DNA from: a virus
UHGV virus genome: UHGV-0145872
Direction: 5' to 3' (one strand)
DNA: 41,029 bases
Shown here: piece by piece, positions 2,536 to 41,029 of the stretch
How the letters are laid out: each line of letters starts with the position of its first letter
Position numbering within the stretch: position 1 is the stretch's first letter
The notes under the pieces: model-generated
What the model was told of the DNA's origin: nothing
Databases searched by the model: none
Seen by the model: only the letters and a program-made list of their open reading frames with translations
Made by a program: the position numbers and the translations under genes

Positions 2536-3398
2536 GCTGTACACATTGCTTTGTCTGAAACACATCCAGTTTAGTAAATCTTTACGTTAGCTAAAATCAG
2601 TTTAAAGCTGCTGTAAAACCTTTTTGTTTAAGCAATCAATCTGCTATTCGATTTTACTGATGTTGCGTTTAACCTTTTCTGAGTTTTTGTGTTTTTAGTC
2701 GTTAACCTGAGACAAGTGTCTTTACGTAAAAACGCAAATCCGACTGAGATAACCTGGTGTGATTTACGGTGTGCTTGCGACGATTTTGTTAAATGGTTCT
2801 ATGGATGATTTTGTGACGATGAGATTGATGAGATGATTAACTGGCCCTGGTGTTTTTTCTCAGTGCAAGGTGATTATCTTTATCATAAGGCTCTTTTCAG
2901 AAAAAGCGTGATGATTGGTTCTGGTGTTTTGATTCAGATGAGATTTACGTTATCGATGGTTAATCGTTTTTATGGTGTGTTGAAAAGTAACGTTTTCAGG
3001 ATAAGAAAATCGATTCTGATATTGGTGAACTTTGTTCTTGTGGCAGAGTTATCTGTAAACAGGTTTTAAGTGCGCTATTCGGCTCTGTGATTGAGTTGTG
3101 TGGTTAAGCTGTAGGTTTTGGTGTTGTTGTTGATTTGCATTGCCAGGAAGCGTTCTGGTTGCGTTTCTGGTGTTTTGTTCGAATGTTCTGTGGATCCTTT
3201 TCCCTTCAGGCTTTTCTCGTCGTCCATGTCGTTTTTAAATCTATTCATGCTGTTGTTGCGTGTTTTGCTGCTGTGTGCAGGATTATCTTTTCGTTCCGGG
3301 ATGGTTTGTTCCGTTTCAATCACTCTTAATCAGAGAGTTGTAGCATTGCTCAATGCCGGATGCCGTAAAGTTTTACCGCGTTGATGAATGATGTGAAG

Positions 3399-7402: not shown

Positions 7403-8596
7403 TTAAACCCCTTTGACAACGTCAGCGTTGACCTGTGGAACCCCGATTTCAGCGGCCAGATTCATGGCGGCTATTACCAGGTTACTGACGGCCAGCGGAT
7501 ACAGCAGGCTGACCATATTTTTACGATGACTTCCCGGATTGCTCAGGCGGGCACGTATGGCATCCACTGCGCTGGCGTCCATAATGTCCGTCAGTTGTTT
7601 ACCGGCCCGTTGCAGTTTGAACGTCAGAAACTCTTCAAGGTTATTGTCCAGAGGCAGAAGTTCGACCACCTCACAGCGCTGAACGACTTCACGGACTTCC
7701 ATATTGCGTTCAGACAGTTTTGTCGCCAGTTCCGGCTGGCCAATCAGCACGATGGACAGCAGTTTTTTGAAACCGGACTCCAGCTCAAAAAAGCGTTTGA
7801 GGTGTTTCAGTGTCGGAATGGGCAGACTGTGGGCCTCCTCAATCACCAGAACGTGGCTGAACCCCGCCTGGCTGCTGTCTTTCAGGACGCGATGCAGCTG
7901 GCGAAAGCGGGCGTCCTGACTGCGTCTGATGCTTTCCAGTGGTGCGATGGTACTGATAATGGCTTCGGCAATCGCTGCTGCCTTCAGGGTTTTCCCTTTC
8001 ACATCGTTGTCTTCCATAGCGATGATGTATGGCTCGATAACAATCACCGGCGCATTCTCGCGGTTGATACGTTCAGTCAGGTCACGGCGCAGCGTGGATT
8101 TACCCGCACCGGACTCACCGATGACGGCCATAAACCCACCATGACGGGCTGTCTGGTACAGCGCCTCACGCACGTAGCGAATGTCCGGAGTGGTGAACAC
8201 ATCATCAGAACCCTGCATGGCTTCGTCGGCGAACGGGTCACGGAAAAGACCAAACGCTTTTTTGGTTGCTGGAAATAACACCTGTTTTTTGAGTAACATA
8301 TTCTCTTCCTCACTGAGGCTCGTTTTATCTGTGGTACCCGCTGTACGGGGCGTGGCCGCGCCCTGTACAGCATCAAAACTCTTCGTTGTATCAATCCCCT
8401 GACTTTCCAGCCAGGACGCAAGACGCCGGCGCACTTCTCCGGGGCTGGTGCGGGGCCACGCGTTATGATTCACAATCTGGGCCAGCGTGGCCTCAGAAAC
8501 ATCGACAGCTCTCGCCACCACCGCCTGTGGAATACGGGCCTCTTTCAGTTGCTGCTTCAGTACCAGCATGTATCCCTCCTCAGTTGCCGTTAACAA
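7403..8596 (-). CDS. transposition-helper AAA+ ATPase (MuB/TniB/ExeA-like)
   Basis: Walker A GESGAGKST and Walker B-like VLVIEEAH; 397 aa; start overlaps the transposase stop (translational coupling). Confidence 0.8.
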   Translation of the reverse strand: MLTATEEGYMLVLKQQLKEARIPQAVVARAVDVSEATLAQIVNHNAWPRTSPGEVRRRLASWLESQGIDTTKSFDAVQGAATPRTAGTTDKTSLSEEENMLLKKQVLFPATKKAFGLFRDPFADEAMQGSDDVFTTPDIRYVREALYQTARHGGFMAVIGESGAGKSTLRRDLTERINRENAPVIVIEPYIIAMEDNDVKGKTLKAAAIAEAIISTIAPLESIRRSQDARFRQLHRVLKDSSQAGFSHVLVIEEAHSLPIPTLKHLKRFFELESGFKKLLSIVLIGQPELATKLSERNMEVREVVQRCEVVELLPLDNNLEEFLTFKLQRAGKQLTDIMDASAVDAIRARLSNPGSHRKNMVSLLYPLAVSNLVIAAMNLAAEIGVPQVNADVVKGV

Positions 8597-14508: not shown

Positions 14509-14638
14509 ATCGTATTCTCCTCTGTGAATAATTCATCGTTTATCCTGCACATCCCGTATCCCCGGCTCTCTTAACGCGCTTTAAAATCCTTTGCGCCCTG
14601 TATTTGTGATGCTGTCTCCACCAAACGAGGAGACACAC

Positions 14639-27927: not shown

Positions 27928-28024
27928 CATCACAGGGGCTCCGGCCCCTTCTTCTTAATCTCCTTTAATATCCGTCACGCGCTTCTCCCGACATACTGCC
28001 CTGAACTTACACAGGAGCACAATC

Positions 28025-34579: not shown

Positions 34580-34633
34580 GCTTTTTAAACGCCTTTAATA
34601 TCAGCGTTCCCGCACGGGGGCAATACTGCCCCC

Positions 34634-36075: not shown

Positions 36076-36646
36076 GCCATTACAACTCCCGCCACCGCTT
36101 GAGGGTGATATCAGTCTCAGGACGCTGGGAAGACTGGCAGGGCGGCTGGATAACATCGACCTGAGCGTACTGATGGTCTTTCTCGTCGATATCGTCGACA
36201 GTTCTGCGCTGCCATGGCTGGGCGAGCAGTTCTCACTGTCTGGCGATGGCTGGGAGCTGGCGGAATCGGACGATGTTCGCCGCATGCTTATAAAAGCAGC
36301 CATCGAACTACACCGGTATAAAGGGACGCCGTGGTCAATCCGGGAAGTTATCCGCCGTTTTGGCTTTGGTGAAGTGGATCTGATTGAAGGCACAGGTCGT
36401 CTCAGTTACGACGGCAATCGCAGCTATAACGGACTGTTTGTTCATGGAGATGCAGCCGCCTGGGCGGTTTATCGCGTTATTCTGAAACAGCCCATTACTA
36501 ACGATCAGGCCGCGATGCTGCGTCAGACGCTCGCTGCATTTGCACCGGCCCGCTGCCATCTGGCCAGCCTGGAGTATCAGTCTGTGGCCATTCGCTATAA
36601 CAATACCGCCATCCATGATGGCAGTTATAACCACGGGAGCAGTTGA
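36056..36646 (+). CDS. tail protein I-like (P2 gpI / Mu gp48 family)
   Basis: About 190 aa; position between baseplate J and tail fibre; likely start at ATG about 36068. Confidence 0.55.
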   Translation: MECLMTEPLQLPPPLEGDISLRTLGRLAGRLDNIDLSVLMVFLVDIVDSSALPWLGEQFSLSGDGWELAESDDVRRMLIKAAIELHRYKGTPWSIREVIRRFGFGEVDLIEGTGRLSYDGNRSYNGLFVHGDAAAWAVYRVILKQPITNDQAAMLRQTLAAFAPARCHLASLEYQSVAIRYNNTAIHDGSYNHGSS

Positions 36647-38073
36647 TTATGGGAAACCTGAATGAAACAGAAAAGTGGGAAGAAAAAATCTATCAACTGG
36701 AGACATCAGATCCGGTTCTGGGTGGTGCTGACGGGATATCAAATCGAGCCCCCCGGCAACTGGCAAACAGGACGAAATGGCTGAAGAAAAAAACGGAGGA
36801 AGCCGCACAGTCACTGGCTGAACACGTACGTTCCCGTAACCACCCGGACGCGACACTGACAGCTAAGGGGTTCACCCAACTGAGCAGTGCCACCAACAGC
36901 ACCTCTGAAACGCTGGCCGCCACACCAAAAGCCGTCAAGGCTGCATACGACCTTGCAGCCGGCAAGGCACCCGTCAGTCACACTCACCCGTGGAGTCAGA
37001 TAACGGGAGTGCCTGCTGCCTCGCTGACGGCAAAAGGCACCGTACAACTGAGCAGCGCCACGGACAGTCAATCAGAAACTGAGGCTGCCACGCCGAAGGC
37101 TGTGAAAATCGCGTATGATCTGGCCCGGGGAAAATACACAGCCCAGGATGCAACAACGACCCGTAAAGGGATCGTACAACTGAGCAGTGCCACCAACAGC
37201 ACCTCTGAAACGCTGGCCGCCACACCAAAGGCCGTCAAGGCTGCATATGACCTGGCTGCCGGCAAGGCCCCCGTCAGCCACACTCACCCGTGGAGTCAGA
37301 TAACGGGAGTGCCTGCTGCCTCGCTGACGGCAAAAGGCACCATACAATTGAGCAGTGCCATCAACAGCACGTCTGAAATACTGGCCGCCACACCGAAAGC
37401 GGTCAAGGCTGCATACGATCTGGCAAACGGAAAACAACCGGCAGATGCCACGCTCACTGCTCTGGCAGGACTTGCCACTGCAGCAGATCGGTTGCCTTAT
37501 TTTACCGGAGCAGACCGCGCAGCGCTGGCAACCCTTACAGCTATTGGTCGCGCTATTATCGCTAAGGGCAGTATAAAAGATGTCCTCAATTACCTTGGTT
37601 TGGGGGAAGGCTCTGCATTGCCTGTTGGTGTGCCTGTTCCGTGGCCCACCGCCACACCGCCAGCAGGCTGGTTACAGTGCAACGGAGCTACGTTCACCAA
37701 AGAACAATATCCTGTTCTGGCCAGAGTCTACCCGACCCTCCGTCTTCCCGATTTACGCGGTGAGTTTATCCGTGGATGGGACGACGGGCGCAAGATTGAC
37801 GAGGGGCGTAAGTTGCTTTCATGGCAGAAAGGTACACTGGTCGGCGGTCATGACGATAACGATTCTTCGCTGGATATCTCGTACATGAGTAACGGAAATA
37901 ATATTGACTATGGCGGCGATAAGGTGTTTGCGGGGAATTACCGTAGCGATTATTTGTGGTACGCAATTCTGGGTGGAACAAACAGTCGCGCAAAAGCCGA
38001 ATTAAACGGAGCATTCTTTAACATAACCCGCCCCCGCAATATCGCGTTTAACTATATCGTGAGGGCGGCGTGA
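36643..38073 (+). CDS. tail fibre protein: constant shaft with repeats plus currently fused C-terminal collar-domain cassette 1
   Basis: 476 aa; repeated fibre motif (QLSSATNSTSETLAATPKAVKAAYDLA) three to four times; C-terminal about 150 aa beginning PVPWPTATPPAGWLQCNG...YP.L...LPDLRGEFIRGWDDGR resembles the phage tail-collar receptor-binding domain. Confidence 0.8.
   Translation: MIMGNLNETEKWEEKIYQLETSDPVLGGADGISNRAPRQLANRTKWLKKKTEEAAQSLAEHVRSRNHPDATLTAKGFTQLSSATNSTSETLAATPKAVKAAYDLAAGKAPVSHTHPWSQITGVPAASLTAKGTVQLSSATDSQSETEAATPKAVKIAYDLARGKYTAQDATTTRKGIVQLSSATNSTSETLAATPKAVKAAYDLAAGKAPVSHTHPWSQITGVPAASLTAKGTIQLSSAINSTSEILAATPKAVKAAYDLANGKQPADATLTALAGLATAADRLPYFTGADRAALATLTAIGRAIIAKGSIKDVLNYLGLGEGSALPVGVPVPWPTATPPAGWLQCNGATFTKEQYPVLARVYPTLRLPDLRGEFIRGWDDGRKIDEGRKLLSWQKGTLVGGHDDNDSSLDISYMSNGNNIDYGGDKVFAGNYRSDYLWYAILGGTNSRAKAELNGAFFNITRPRNIAFNYIVRAA
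36878..37350 (+). repeat. about 170 bp near-identical direct repeats (period 300 bp) within tail fibre shaft
   Basis: 36878-37050 and 37178-37350 differ at only a few positions; encode repeated fibre motifs. Confidence 0.7.
37583..37608 (-). other. candidate invertase crossover site A (12-2-12, inside tail fibre gene)
   Basis: Minus strand reads TTCCCCCAAACC-AA-GGTAATTGAGGA; left half matches the hix/gix/cix-like half-site pattern TTxxCxxAAACC; lies at the constant/variable junction of the fibre. Confidence 0.55.
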
Positions 38074-38079
38074 TACCGT

Positions 38080-38694
38080 TCAGCTGGCAAGTGCCAGTGG
38101 CGCTTCCGGCCAGCTGATTTCAGGTGCCGTGCTGATATCCAGTGCGTTCAGCTCGTCGATATAATCCAGCACGGCGTTCAGTTTTGCCGTTTCTTCTGGT
38201 GTCAGACTGCGACCAGCACGCAGTTTGAGGTTGATAAGATCGACGGACGCCATCGCCTGTTTCACCCGTTGCTGGCGTTGCTGTCTGGCAACCTCCAGTT
38301 CTGCGGCTCGCTGCCGTTCAGTATCGGTTACCCACGCCTCACCGTTCCAGGTATCCCATGGCGTGGCCGGCTGTTTTGTGGTGGTGTCCGCCGGGTAATC
38401 ACCCGGTTGGGTAATCAGAACGGGGTTACCGTTCTCCGTGCTGTATACCGTCTCGCCGCGGTGATCAGGCACATGCTCCCACCCGTTCAGCGTGGCAGTC
38501 CGGCAAACCACGTAACCCGAAATTGCCTCCGGCGGTGCATCGGCGCACGAATGTGCCGGAGTACCCACCCCAAGGGCGAGATACTCCACAGAGGATGAGG
38601 TGTATTCCCGGGTTTCCTCGTCATAGTGATATACAGTGATCTCGCCCGCTACAGTGGCGATACCGTTTTCATCCAGAACTGCAGTGTTACTCAT
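38080..38694 (-). CDS. tail fibre assembly protein (Tfa / Mu U family)
   Basis: 204 aa; C-terminal LNAVLDYIDELNALDISTAPEISWPEAP is the conserved Tfa-family tail; translationally coupled to cassette 2 on the minus strand. Confidence 0.75.
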   Translation of the reverse strand: MSNTAVLDENGIATVAGEITVYHYDEETREYTSSSVEYLALGVGTPAHSCADAPPEAISGYVVCRTATLNGWEHVPDHRGETVYSTENGNPVLITQPGDYPADTTTKQPATPWDTWNGEAWVTDTERQRAAELEVARQQRQQRVKQAMASVDLINLKLRAGRSLTPEETAKLNAVLDYIDELNALDISTAPEISWPEAPLALAS

Positions 38695-39227
38695 TAAACT
38701 GCCCTCACAATGTAATTAAGTGCAATGCTACGGGGTCTGACAGTGATACCCTTCGCATACCCGCTTCTGATAGAGGTCAGAATAGTAGCCTGCATACCAT
38801 TGTCTGACATTGCCACGACAGGATCGCTGAATGTTGTCCCGTCCGGCATTTTAAAGCTGCCCTCACGAAGGTCTGTAATGGAATCTTCATTGTTGAATCC
38901 CATGCCGACTATCCCCGAGGTTCCCGTAGTGTCCTGGTTATAATAATCCAGCATTGCTGTTCTTAACAGCGTTGCCCCTTGTGCGGACAGCAACTTACGT
39001 CCTGTATCAACTTTGCGCCCGTCGTCCCATCCACGGATAAACTCACCGCGTAAATCGGGAAGACGGAGGGTCGGGTAGACTCTGGCCAGAACAGGATATT
39101 GTTCTTTGGTGAACGTAGCTCCGTTGCACTGTAACCAGCCTGCTGGCGGTGTGGCGGTGGGCCACGGAACAGGCACACCAACGGGTAGCGCCGAGCCTTC
39201 TCCTAAACCAACGTTTTTATGCGGCCC
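38694..39227 (-). CDS. silent alternative tail-fibre C-terminal cassette 2 (collar domain, no start codon of its own)
   Basis: Begins ...NVGLGEGSALPVGVPVPWPTATPPAGWLQCNG..., near-identical to the junction in the expressed fibre, then diverges, then ends with the conserved ...NYIVRAV; frame open from crossover site B. Confidence 0.65.
   Translation of the reverse strand, partial: GPHKNVGLGEGSALPVGVPVPWPTATPPAGWLQCNGATFTKEQYPVLARVYPTLRLPDLRGEFIRGWDDGRKVDTGRKLLSAQGATLLRTAMLDYYNQDTTGTSGIVGMGFNNEDSITDLREGSFKMPDGTTFSDPVVAMSDNGMQATILTSIRSGYAKGITVRPRSIALNYIVRAV
39198..39223 (+). other. candidate invertase crossover site B
   Basis: TTCTCCTAAACC-AA-CGTTTTTATGCG; same 12-2-12 architecture and conserved left half-site; opposite orientation to site A. 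Confidence 0.55.
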
Positions 39228-39732
39228 TTACGATGTAATTAAACGCAACATTGCGGGGGCGCATTGATATCCATGCCCCGGTAAAATTATCCTCCGCTGT
39301 CCTTTGAATACCCGTTATAGAGTTATCTGCTGATGCAGGAACATAATCGCTATTATTTCCTGCTTTAGGATTAGCTGGGTTTCCAACGGTTATAACAGAA
39401 TCAGCAGTAGCAAAAGCGATACCTACTTTGACATTAGTATTCAGATCGTAACCGTAATAATCCTGCAAAGCTGTACGAATAAATGTTGCAGCCTGACCAC
39501 TTAGCAATGAACGCCCCGTATCAACTTTGCGCCCGTCGTCCCATCCACGGATAAACTCACCGCGCAAATCGGGAAGACGGAGGGTCGGGTAGACTCTGGC
39601 CAGAACAGGATATTGTTCTTTTGTAAAGGCGCGCCCGTCGCACTTTAACCAGCCTGCTGGCGGTGTGGCGGTGGGCCATGGAACAGGCACACCAACAGGC
39701 AGTGCAGAGCCTTCCCCCAAACCAACGTTTAT
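39217..39732 (-). CDS. silent alternative tail-fibre C-terminal cassette 3 (collar domain)
   Basis: Begins EINVGLGEGSALPVGVPVPWPTATPPAGWLKCDG... and ends ...NVAFNYIVRAA; frame open from crossover site C; its stop lies inside site B. Confidence 0.65.
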   Translation of the reverse strand: MNVGLGEGSALPVGVPVPWPTATPPAGWLKCDGRAFTKEQYPVLARVYPTLRLPDLRGEFIRGWDDGRKVDTGRSLLSGQAATFIRTALQDYYGYDLNTNVKVGIAFATADSVITVGNPANPKAGNNSDYVPASADNSITGIQRTAEDNFTGAWISMRPRNVAFNYIVRAA

Positions 39733-39737
39733 CTCTC
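39712..39737 (+). other. candidate invertase crossover site C (adjacent to invertase gene)
   Basis: TTCCCCCAAACC-AA-CGTTTATCTCTC; left half identical to site A; about 55 bp upstream of the invertase start, as gix/cix sites sit next to gin/cin. Confidence 0.55.
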
Positions 39738-39791
39738 AAATCCTCCCCACATTATCTCAGTACTTTAACCACTCAAAAGGGAGTATTTTTA

Positions 39792-40261
39792 ATGCTGATT
39801 GGCTACATACGTGTGTCAACAAATGACCAAAACACAGATTTGCAACGCAATGCATTAATGTGCGCAGGATGTGAACAGATTTTTGAGGACAAAATGAGCG
39901 GAACCAAGTCGGAACGACCAGGCCTGAAACGCGCTTTAAAGTGCCTTAAAAGAGGGGATACATTGGTGGTCTGGAAGCTGGATCGGTTGGGTAGAAGAAT
40001 GAAACACCTCATTGCTCTCACAGAAGAGCTACGCGCAAAAGGTGTCAATTTTCGCAGTCTGACGGATTCAATCGATACCAGCACTCCGATGGGAAGGTTC
40101 TTTTTTCATATGATGGGTGCACTGGCAGAAATGGAGCGTGAACTGATAGTTGAGCGCACGCTGGCAGGACTGGCTGCTGCGCGAGCACAAGGAAGAGTTG
40201 GAGGACGTCGCCCGAAACTGACGAAGGAGCAGCATGAGCAGATCGCAAGATTGCTCCAGAA
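39792..40261 (+). pseudogene. Gin/Cin/Pin-family serine DNA invertase, 3' end truncated by IS26 insertion
   Basis: N-terminus MLIGYIRVSTNDQNTDLQRNALMCAGCEQIFEDK... is near-identical to Gin/Pin as recalled, with the catalytic Ser in RVSTNDQ; after about 157 codons (…RRPKLTKEQHEQIARLLQK) the frame runs into the IS26 inverted repeat and ends after 16 IS-derived residues; the C-terminal HTH domain is missing. Confidence 0.8.
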
Positions 40262-41029
40262 GGCACTGTTGCAAATAGTCGGTGGTGATAAACTTATCAT
40301 CCCCTTTTGCTGATGGAGCTGCACATGAACCCATTCAAAGGCCGGCATTTTCAGCGTGACATCATTCTGTGGGCCGTACGCTGGTACTGCAAATACGGCA
40401 TCAGTTACCGTGAGCTGCAGGAGATGCTGGCTGAACGCGGAGTGAATGTCGATCACTCCACGATTTACCGCTGGGTTCAGCGTTATGCGCCTGAAATGGA
40501 AAAACGGCTGCGCTGGTACTGGCGTAACCCTTCCGATCTTTGCCCGTGGCACATGGATGAAACCTACGTGAAGGTCAATGGCCGCTGGGCGTATCTGTAC
40601 CGGGCCGTCGACAGCCGGGGCCGCACTGTCGATTTTTATCTCTCCTCCCGTCGTAACAGCAAAGCTGCATACCGGTTTCTGGGTAAAATCCTCAACAACG
40701 TGAAGAAGTGGCAGATCCCGCGATTCATCAACACGGATAAAGCGCCCGCCTATGGTCGCGCGCTTGCTCTGCTCAAACGCGAAGGCCGGTGCCCGTCTGA
40801 CGTTGAACACCGACAGATTAAGTACCGGAACAACGTGATTGAATGCGATCATGGCAAACTGAAACGGATAATCGGCGCCACGCTGGGATTTAAATCCATG
40901 AAGACGGCTTACGCCACCATCAAAGGTATTGAGGTGATGCGTGCACTACGCAAAGGCCAGGCCTCAGCATTTTATTATGGTGATCCCCTGGGCGAAATGC
41001 GCCTGGTAAGCAGAGTTTTTGAAATGTAA
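40262..41029 (+). mobile_element. IS26 (IS6 family), partial: left inverted repeat and complete transposase gene; right end lies beyond the window
   Basis: 14 bp terminal inverted repeat GGCACTGTTGCAAA at 40262-40275, followed by the characteristic IS26 leader and the Tnp26 ORF; the 820 bp element would end at about 41081. Confidence 0.9.
40325..41029 (+). CDS. tnpA: IS26 transposase Tnp26 (234 aa)
   Basis: Protein MNPFKGRHFQRDIILWAVRWYCKYGISYRELQEMLAERGVNVDHSTIYRWVQRYAPEMEKRLRWYWR...GEMRLVSRVFEM matches IS26 transposase as I recall it; stop codon at the window end. Confidence 0.9.
   Translation: MNPFKGRHFQRDIILWAVRWYCKYGISYRELQEMLAERGVNVDHSTIYRWVQRYAPEMEKRLRWYWRNPSDLCPWHMDETYVKVNGRWAYLYRAVDSRGRTVDFYLSSRRNSKAAYRFLGKILNNVKKWQIPRFINTDKAPAYGRALALLKREGRCPSDVEHRQIKYRNNVIECDHGKLKRIIGATLGFKSMKTAYATIKGIEVMRALRKGQASAFYYGDPLGEMRLVSRVFEM

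Follow-up and report, generated by a model that had tools for sequence, protein, structure and literature searches.

In this article, I discuss the tail-fibre region of the UHGV virus genome UHGV-0145872, a viral stretch of 41,029 nucleotides (nt) that is called the window throughout, and the single gene in it for the fibre chaperone Tfa. The region lies at the right-hand end of a BcepMu-like transposable prophage and represents isomer S0 of a multiple-inversion module of the Din/Min (p15B) type with three sites, three cassettes and four states, in which a constant 5' part of the fibre gene (Sc, the shaft) is joined to one of three variable cassettes (Sv1, Sv2 or Sv3, the tips), and its single Tfa gene is a rule of the family and not a local defect. 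A first-pass annotation, made from the letters alone, had pointed out that in this 'frozen orientation' no Tfa is co-expressed with the fibre and had left three ways out: that the collar-type cassettes need no Tfa to fold, that Tfa is transcribed from a promoter of its own, or that the phage makes defective fibres. What it missed is that the locus belongs to a known kind of multi-site shufflon, that four natural isomers exist, and that it is 'frozen' in cis only. Taken as a whole, the explanation preferred here, namely a four-state shufflon whose one generic Tfa is shared by all tips and supplied in trans, is one that I hold with evenly balanced confidence, and its parts are of unequal strength.

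The four isomers and the broken invertase

The invertase recombines site A with the inverted site B or site C, so that the shaft is fused to Sv1, Sv2 or Sv3 (Table 1), and the geometry A(+), B(-), C(-) allows exactly four reachable states, each of which converts to two others. These are S0, the state of the window (Sc-Sv1 / Tfa' Sv2' / Sv3'), S1 (Sc-Sv2-Tfa / Sv1' / Sv3'), S2 (Sc-Sv3 / Sv2-Tfa / Sv1') and S3 (Sc-Sv3 / Sv1 / Tfa' Sv2'), which leaves Tfa antisense in half of the isomers; at equal rates the stationary fusions of this state graph are 50% Sv3, 25% Sv1 and 25% Sv2. All four are found in complete Escherichia coli genomes with an intact invertase (S0 in the surveyed loci L002-L004 and L007, S1 in L008, S2 in L010 and S3 in L009), and what separates these natural isomers is precisely an A-B, A-C or B-C inversion. 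Junction-specific queries found Sc-Sv1 in 103 genomes, Sc-Sv2 in 327 and Sc-Sv3 in 78, while long composite queries for S2 and S3 (354 and 148 matches at a coverage of at least 80%) were dropped as counts because they included S1 and S0 genomes too; for these two states only the 100%-identity examples, several for each, were retained. Two-cassette variants of the form Sv1 / Tfa' Sv2' occur in L005, L006, L019, L020 and L023.

The letters of the window carry the same arrangement. Sv1 forms inverted repeats with both silent cassettes, 229 nt at 93% identity with Sv2 and 226 nt at 90% with Sv3, far beyond chance and both starting at 37592, and Pfam places the collar domain PF07484 in all three cassettes. 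The crossover sites are all of the form ...ACC/ACG TT GGTTTRGGRGAA, with A on the + strand and B and C inverted, the junction GCA TRA AAACG TT GGTTT is kept in 23 cassette-to-cassette junctions, and on my own reading of these strings the sites resemble hix/gix sites. Four marks of a Din-family multiple-inversion system are present: an invertase, inverted sites, multiple cassettes and observed isomers.

Similar modules have been described at the bench, and are likened to the window here by their published descriptions. In a prophage of enteropathogenic E. coli (EPEC) E2348/69, a shufflon with three inverted repeats yields four interconvertible variants with three alternative C-termini (PMC4272514), and Enterobacter phage FRphi carries three isoforms at about 50/25/25% in chromosomal and virion DNA alike, which is the distribution predicted by the four-state graph, with locked states in the delta-gin background that match this graph as well (PMC13418256). 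The chaperone is not discussed in either paper. For the prophage represented by L016, inversion was confirmed by polymerase chain reaction in a preprint on ST131.

The invertase of the window (Resolvase PF00239, E-value 5.5e-51) is 100% identical to residues 1-157 of the intact 190-residue protein of L002 and other relatives, the gene being intact in all of L002-L010, and its C-terminal 33 residues have been replaced by an inserted element that I take to be IS26. The last bases of the window are the tnp26 stop codon, and the contig was probably broken at the IS26 repeat. A Fis-dependent enhancer could survive, the 5' 471 nt of the gene being intact. Din-family invertases act in trans. Inversion was also seen in a prophage without an invertase of its own (ST131 preprint), and for these two reasons the disrupted element is locked in S0 in cis only, that is, unless another Din invertase acts on it in trans; the 'frozen orientation' of the first-pass annotation holds for the IS26-cut gene itself and may not hold once a second invertase is allowed for.

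A single Tfa gene for many tips

The puzzle that the first-pass annotation raised is real, and its anatomy is borne out by the open reading frame (ORF) coordinates and the sequence. The fibre TGA stop at 38071-38073 is separated by 6 bp from the convergent Tfa stop at 38080-38082; Tfa is coupled to silent cassette 2 on the opposite strand, as claimed, its ATG (38694-38692, minus strand) overlapping the Sv2 TAA (38696-38694) as TAATG, with a GAGGG Shine-Dalgarno sequence 7 nt upstream of the start; and it is indeed the only Tfa (PF02413 score 98.8 against a cut-off of 22.1), a tblastn search of the whole 41-kb window with the Tfa protein giving one match. The central segment is laid out as [Sv1> <Tfa <Sv2], and since Tfa is fixed downstream of Sv2 within it, Sv1 is never co-directional with Tfa, so that the missing co-orientation is a property of the design and not merely of the present state.

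How common this design is can be seen from 80 viral contigs, collected by a tip-based search that is unbiased with respect to Tfa, in which collar cassettes, Tfa genes and invertases were annotated by jackhmmer on all ORFs. Where there is a single tip and the contig continues, a full-length Tfa ORF follows 0-30 nt after the tip in 60/60 loci, the same tip-then-Tfa pairing is found in HK97, P2-like phages and EtG, and it recurs in a Tfa-based search covering 79 loci from many Enterobacterales genera. Multi-cassette loci look different: 25 have exactly one collar-type Tfa for 2-8 cassettes (for example, eight cassettes in L028, seven in L039 and five each in L026 and L027), and only three, all of them two-cassette loci (L035, L054 and L082), have two collar-type Tfas, one per orientation. 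In all the one-Tfa loci, the gene sits in a central segment of the form [SvX>Tfa> <SvY] with convergent stops 6-12 bp apart, which means that one cassette per locus, Sv1 in the case of the window, is never co-orientable with Tfa, and each of the remaining cassettes is just a 'cassette plus site' unit. The site sequence and a homologous invertase flank recur in the p15B-type loci and the window type alike, making the one-Tfa design old and common to P1-like and BcepMu-like backbones. Comparing cassette and Tfa order in relatives was a check that the first-pass annotation had itself proposed, and it returns the same one-Tfa arrangement as common and conserved.

One could still imagine that a former Mu-like S-U/U'-S' segment recently lost one U, that is, that a Tfa once linked to Sv1 was deleted locally; the two stops are only 6 bp apart, and the TACCGTT that follows the Sv1 stop weakly resembles the half-site AAACGTT. 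However, all window-type relatives have the same junction with the same 6-bp spacer, an equivalent convergent junction is present in p15B-type loci whose Tfa N-terminal domain is only 55-66% identical, and the p15B-type spacers (TTATAT..) contain no half-site. A junction shared by both types implies that the arrangement is old and conserved, and the deletion, to which I would attach only a very slight probability, is effectively refuted by the survey and the junction comparison.

A few observations from the survey stand beside this result. In L018 (IMGVR_UViG_3300015174_000013), positions 3092-3160, window-type cassettes (Sv1 99% identical) are combined with an invertase and an invertase-proximal intergenic region of the p15B type, so the cassette array and the invertase module appear to recombine independently. 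In several Photorhabdus loci (L137, L139, L144, L146, L151-L154 and L157), one Tfa comes after two collar cassettes that stand in tandem and read in the same direction, which is another way for tips to share one chaperone, and often there is also a convergent Tfa of another type. No flagellin gene was found in any surveyed locus.

If one Tfa is to serve several tips, it should not be tailored to one of them, and this was examined through the insert, the stretch that lies between the conserved collar and the final 14 residues. When inserts are clustered at an identity of at least 70%, Tfa-linked and unlinked tips fall together in six clusters; tips of L031, L041 and L064, which have a cis Tfa, match the Sv3 insert at 97% protein identity, and the tip of L022, which has a cis Tfa as well, matches that of Sv1 at 62%. 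Over 77 distinct tip/Tfa pairs, the N-terminal domain of Tfa stays at an identity of about 0.5-0.65 while the cognate inserts fall to 14-37%, with a weak rank correlation between the two (rho 0.17), and conservation of the Tfa alignment extends from end to end, the window protein being 48-72% identical over its full length to the Tfas of HK97, P2-like phages, EtG and p15B-type loci. Because the N-domain does not co-vary with the tip insert, the simplest reading of these alignments is that Tfa is a generic chaperone of the conserved collar scaffold, not an Sv2-specific one, and could serve all three cassettes. In sequence comparison the cassette matches the T4 gp37 receptor-binding tip (2XGF), and the match takes in NIAFNYIVR, the C-terminal strand that runs back to the collar; tips of the gp37 class need gp38, which lambda Tfa can replace. 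Tfa itself gave no sequence match in PDB.

That every one of the single-tip loci retains its cis Tfa, that the inserts of Sv3 and Sv1 match cis-Tfa tips, that the Tfa N-domain does not vary along with the insert, contrary to what one would expect of an insert-specific partner, and that gp37-type tips classically need gp38 or Tfa, all make it rather unlikely that the Sv1 and Sv3 tips fold without Tfa, with Tfa as an Sv2-specific partner or an extra adhesin whose orientation in S0 is irrelevant. The same points count against the first of the three options of the first-pass annotation. The idea does have its attractions, since T4 gene 37 mutations can bypass gp38 and Tfa independence can therefore evolve, the one-Tfa design is stable across the 25 loci, unlinked cassettes are under purifying selection, and the Tfa-linked cassette type is linked in every sampled case in both shufflon lineages (17/17 in cluster 0 and 7/7 in cluster 7).

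The Sv3 insert (cassette at 39217-39726) also shows how such tips may spread. Against the P2-like loci L031, L041 and L064 its dS (synonymous divergence) is only 0.03-0.16, while the adjacent conserved collar-coding part has a dS of about 1 against the p15B-type loci L027 and L039, and from these values it looks as if only the insert of about 90 codons is exchanged horizontally between phage families.

Selection bears on whether unlinked tips are used. Full-length cassettes in the never-co-orientable position are intact ORFs in 23/23 cases; compared with cis-linked homologues, they have a ratio of non-synonymous to synonymous divergence (dN/dS) of 0.12-0.16 at a dS of 0.8-1.0, and two such cassettes in different loci differ by 20-21 synonymous and 4 non-synonymous changes (dN/dS 0.04-0.05). 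Unlinked Sv3-type cassettes have values of 0.26-0.31, and the Sv2 type has too few differences for dN/dS to have power. As judged from these ratios, purifying selection argues against 'defective fibres' for the family as a whole.

It is from this angle that the last option of the first-pass annotation must be judged, here taken to mean that S0 and S3 make no Tfa, their fibres are misfolded or missing as a tolerated cost of the shufflon, and the IS26-locked copy is a dead end for infection. There is no detectable promoter for antisense Tfa, the related two-cassette loci L035, L054 and L082 have a Tfa for each orientation, the junction counts above make Sc-Sv2(-Tfa) the most frequent majority state in E. 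coli genomes, and only one of three locked FRphi isoforms infected the tested host, a loss of infectivity that the authors ascribe to receptor specificity and for which no control for co-orientation of the chaperone gene is reported (PMC13418256). And yet a dead state would hardly keep its cassettes open and at a dN/dS of 0.04-0.16, nor would one expect the design to be conserved in two phage backbones with up to 8 cassettes, in all 25 loci, when two-Tfa alternatives exist in the same gene pool, and I consider this option improbable.

Routes by which Tfa could reach Sv1 fibres

In the preferred explanation, the whole shufflon would share one generic Tfa, and Sv1-type tips would be functional products. 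In S1 and S2, transcripts of the fibre gene would run on into Tfa, whereas in S0 and S3 Tfa would have to reach the fibre in trans and not by co-transcription in the late operon. Three routes are conceivable, namely weak transcription that comes in from the invertase side, sister copies that have inverted in the course of lytic replication, and the generic Tfas of co-resident, co-induced prophages. No terminator-like site was found on the minus strand between site C and Tfa, so transcription entering from the invertase side would reach the gene. In the window, where the invertase is broken, the flipped-sister-copy route is closed unless another Din invertase acts in trans, and this particular copy may be short of chaperone; the outward-facing TTGCAA that the IS26 end carries could make a weak hybrid promoter through the invertase antisense toward the silent cassettes and Tfa. 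As an estimate for the family, I regard supply of a shared Tfa in trans as a toss-up.

Several observations weigh against this explanation and should be set out together. No sigma-70-like site upstream of Tfa on the minus strand (38600-40300) rises above shuffled controls, the best position-weight-matrix score being 10.05 against a shuffled mean maximum of 10.9, and a consensus scan likewise gave no minus-strand promoter site for Tfa. The motif TTAAnCnCCTTTAATATC, which could serve this BcepMu-like phage as a late-promoter box or as an activator box, occurs on the + strand at 14571-14588, 27955-27972 and 34585-34602 (two exact copies and one with 3 mismatches, plus a fourth, weaker match at 7403, where chance would give 0.17 matches), each of the three copies lying just upstream of a + strand late-gene block, and no copy lies in the invertible region or in the flank of that region. 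The three two-Tfa loci suggest that co-orientation matters in related systems. The Sv1 type itself shows 1.5 synonymous against 3.5 non-synonymous differences, too few for power, and the low dN/dS elsewhere could come partly from recent import of inserts from functional tips. Any route by which Tfa would be supplied in S0 is a proposal. Going by the promoter scans and the late box, the sequence offers no support for a promoter of Tfa's own, the second option of the first-pass annotation; the three options of that annotation can be ranked by the evidence, and none is proven.

Two candidate promoters were rejected. An extended -10 element, TGaGATAAT, between the invertase ATG and site C scores 7.3 and is probably the mirror of the invertase's own -10, and an antisense TTGACA-16-nAGCAT within the invertase gene stems from conserved catalytic codons and is found in one-Tfa and two-Tfa systems alike. 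The latter can be seen on the minus strand at 39792-39850 as a perfect TTGACA with CAGCAT 16 nt later, pointing into the invertible segment and not above shuffled controls, and the same string is conserved in all Din-type loci examined.

It is possible, if doubtful, that the answer is of another kind, and that either the single Tfa of Min-type collar shufflons is expressed in both orientations by an unrecognised route, for which an inward promoter in the conserved stretch that separates the outermost site from the invertase gene would be a candidate, or short collar tips on this shaft fold free of any chaperone. Were orientation-independent expression true, one chaperone gene would serve up to eight interchangeable tips; were chaperone-free folding true, the rule that gp37-type tips need a gp38/Tfa-type helper would be overturned.

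Known systems, host element and anatomy of the locus

The Min multiple-inversion system of plasmid p15B was reportedly described by Sandmeier, Iida and Arber in 1990-92, and is said to have six crossover sites and 240 isomers. Like the window, it has a Din-family invertase beside more than two crossover sites and one constant 5' fibre part with several 3' cassettes, and the surveyed p15B-type loci (L015, L026-L028, L034, L039, L052 and L058) share the collar cassettes, the site sequence and the single Tfa. The window differs in having three sites and three cassettes, in residing in a BcepMu-like transposable prophage and not in a P1-like plasmid, in the subtype of the intergenic region next to the invertase, and in the disruption of its invertase by IS26. 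The G segment of Mu with Gin and the C segment of P1 with Cin are also alike in that an invertible segment ends the tail-fibre operon, the adjoining serine invertase reads away from it, Sc and Sv are fused at a crossover site, and Tfa (U) lies downstream of the variable part. Mu and P1, however, have two sites and two cassettes, each with its own Tfa (U and U'), whereas the window has three cassettes for one Tfa, a central segment [Sv1> <Tfa <Sv2] that lacks a second Tfa, and collar tips like that of T4 gp37. In HK97, the end of Stf is a cassette of this type, and the Tfa behind it is 61.5% identical to that of the window. In T4 gp37/gp38 and in the Stf/Tfa pairs of lambda and HK97, one tip has one chaperone and the two are always co-transcribed, in contrast to the shared chaperone gene of the window.

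Tail-fibre shufflons set the host range of phages and are being used to re-target phages and tailocins, and if one generic Tfa serves every collar-type tip, engineered fibres of this class would need only one helper and tips could be swapped as inserts of about 250 bp. The biology of the window itself is ordinary, that of a prophage module which is common in E. coli and which IS26 has inactivated here; that one invertible chaperone gene should serve tips expressed while it is antisense is a modest but testable claim, which bears on how host-range experiments with locked isoforms are read.

The left part of the window has matches to an rve transposase, an AAA_22 ATPase, Portal_Mu and Phage_Mu_F, a related phage, PhiKM, has been placed in Bcepmuvirus, and near-identical prophages are found at unrelated sites in or beside gcd, yccA, flgA, cysM, yehY and ybjC, with the invertase as their last gene. 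The features of the fibre region are collected in Table 1.

Table 1. Features of the invertible tail-fibre region, in window coordinates
Feature	Position	Strand	Basis
Tail-fibre ORF, 476 amino acids (aa)	36643-38073	+	Four Phage_fiber_2 repeats and C-terminal Collar domain (Pfam)
Constant 5' part Sc, fibre shaft	36643-37593	+	PF03406, four stretches, E 2.4e-76; 292-nt direct repeats
Crossover site A, TCCTCAATTACC TT GGTTTGGGGGAA, Sc/Sv junction	37583-37608	+	Cassette homology from 37592; isomers joined exactly there
Expressed variable cassette Sv1, T4 gp37-like collar tip	37594-38073	+	Collar PF07484 E 2.9e-15; PDB 2XGF E 2.2e-15
6-bp spacer TACCGT between convergent Sv1 and Tfa stops	38074-38079	none	Sequence; relatives carry the same spacer
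Tfa gene, 204 aa	38080-38694	-	Caudo_TAP PF02413 E 3.5e-28
Silent cassette Sv2	38694-39212	-	Stop overlaps Tfa start (TAATG); fused to Sc in S1 (L008)
Crossover site B	39198-39223	-	Centre AA at 39210-39211 (+ strand); inverted repeat I1 ends at 39214
Silent cassette Sv3	39217-39726	-	Collar PF07484 E 6.6e-16; fused to Sc in S2 (L010) and S3 (L009)
Crossover site C	39712-39737	-	Centre AA at 39724-39725 (+ strand); inverted repeat I2 ends at 39728; alignment of invertase-proximal flank
Din-family serine invertase, cut off after codon 157 of 190	39792-40262	+	Resolvase N-domain only; C-terminal DNA-binding part gone
IS26 left end (left inverted repeat GGCACTGTTGCAAA) and tnp26 gene	40262-41029	+	DDE_Tnp_IS240 E 2.5e-48

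The shaft, too, is variable among near-identical prophages, the fibre being 476 aa long here and 530, 542, 586, 630 or 664 aa elsewhere (L002, L003, L006, L007, L009 and L010). These differences correspond to gain or loss of Phage_fiber_2 units, and the window has 292-nt direct repeats spaced 300 nt apart at 36843-37434.

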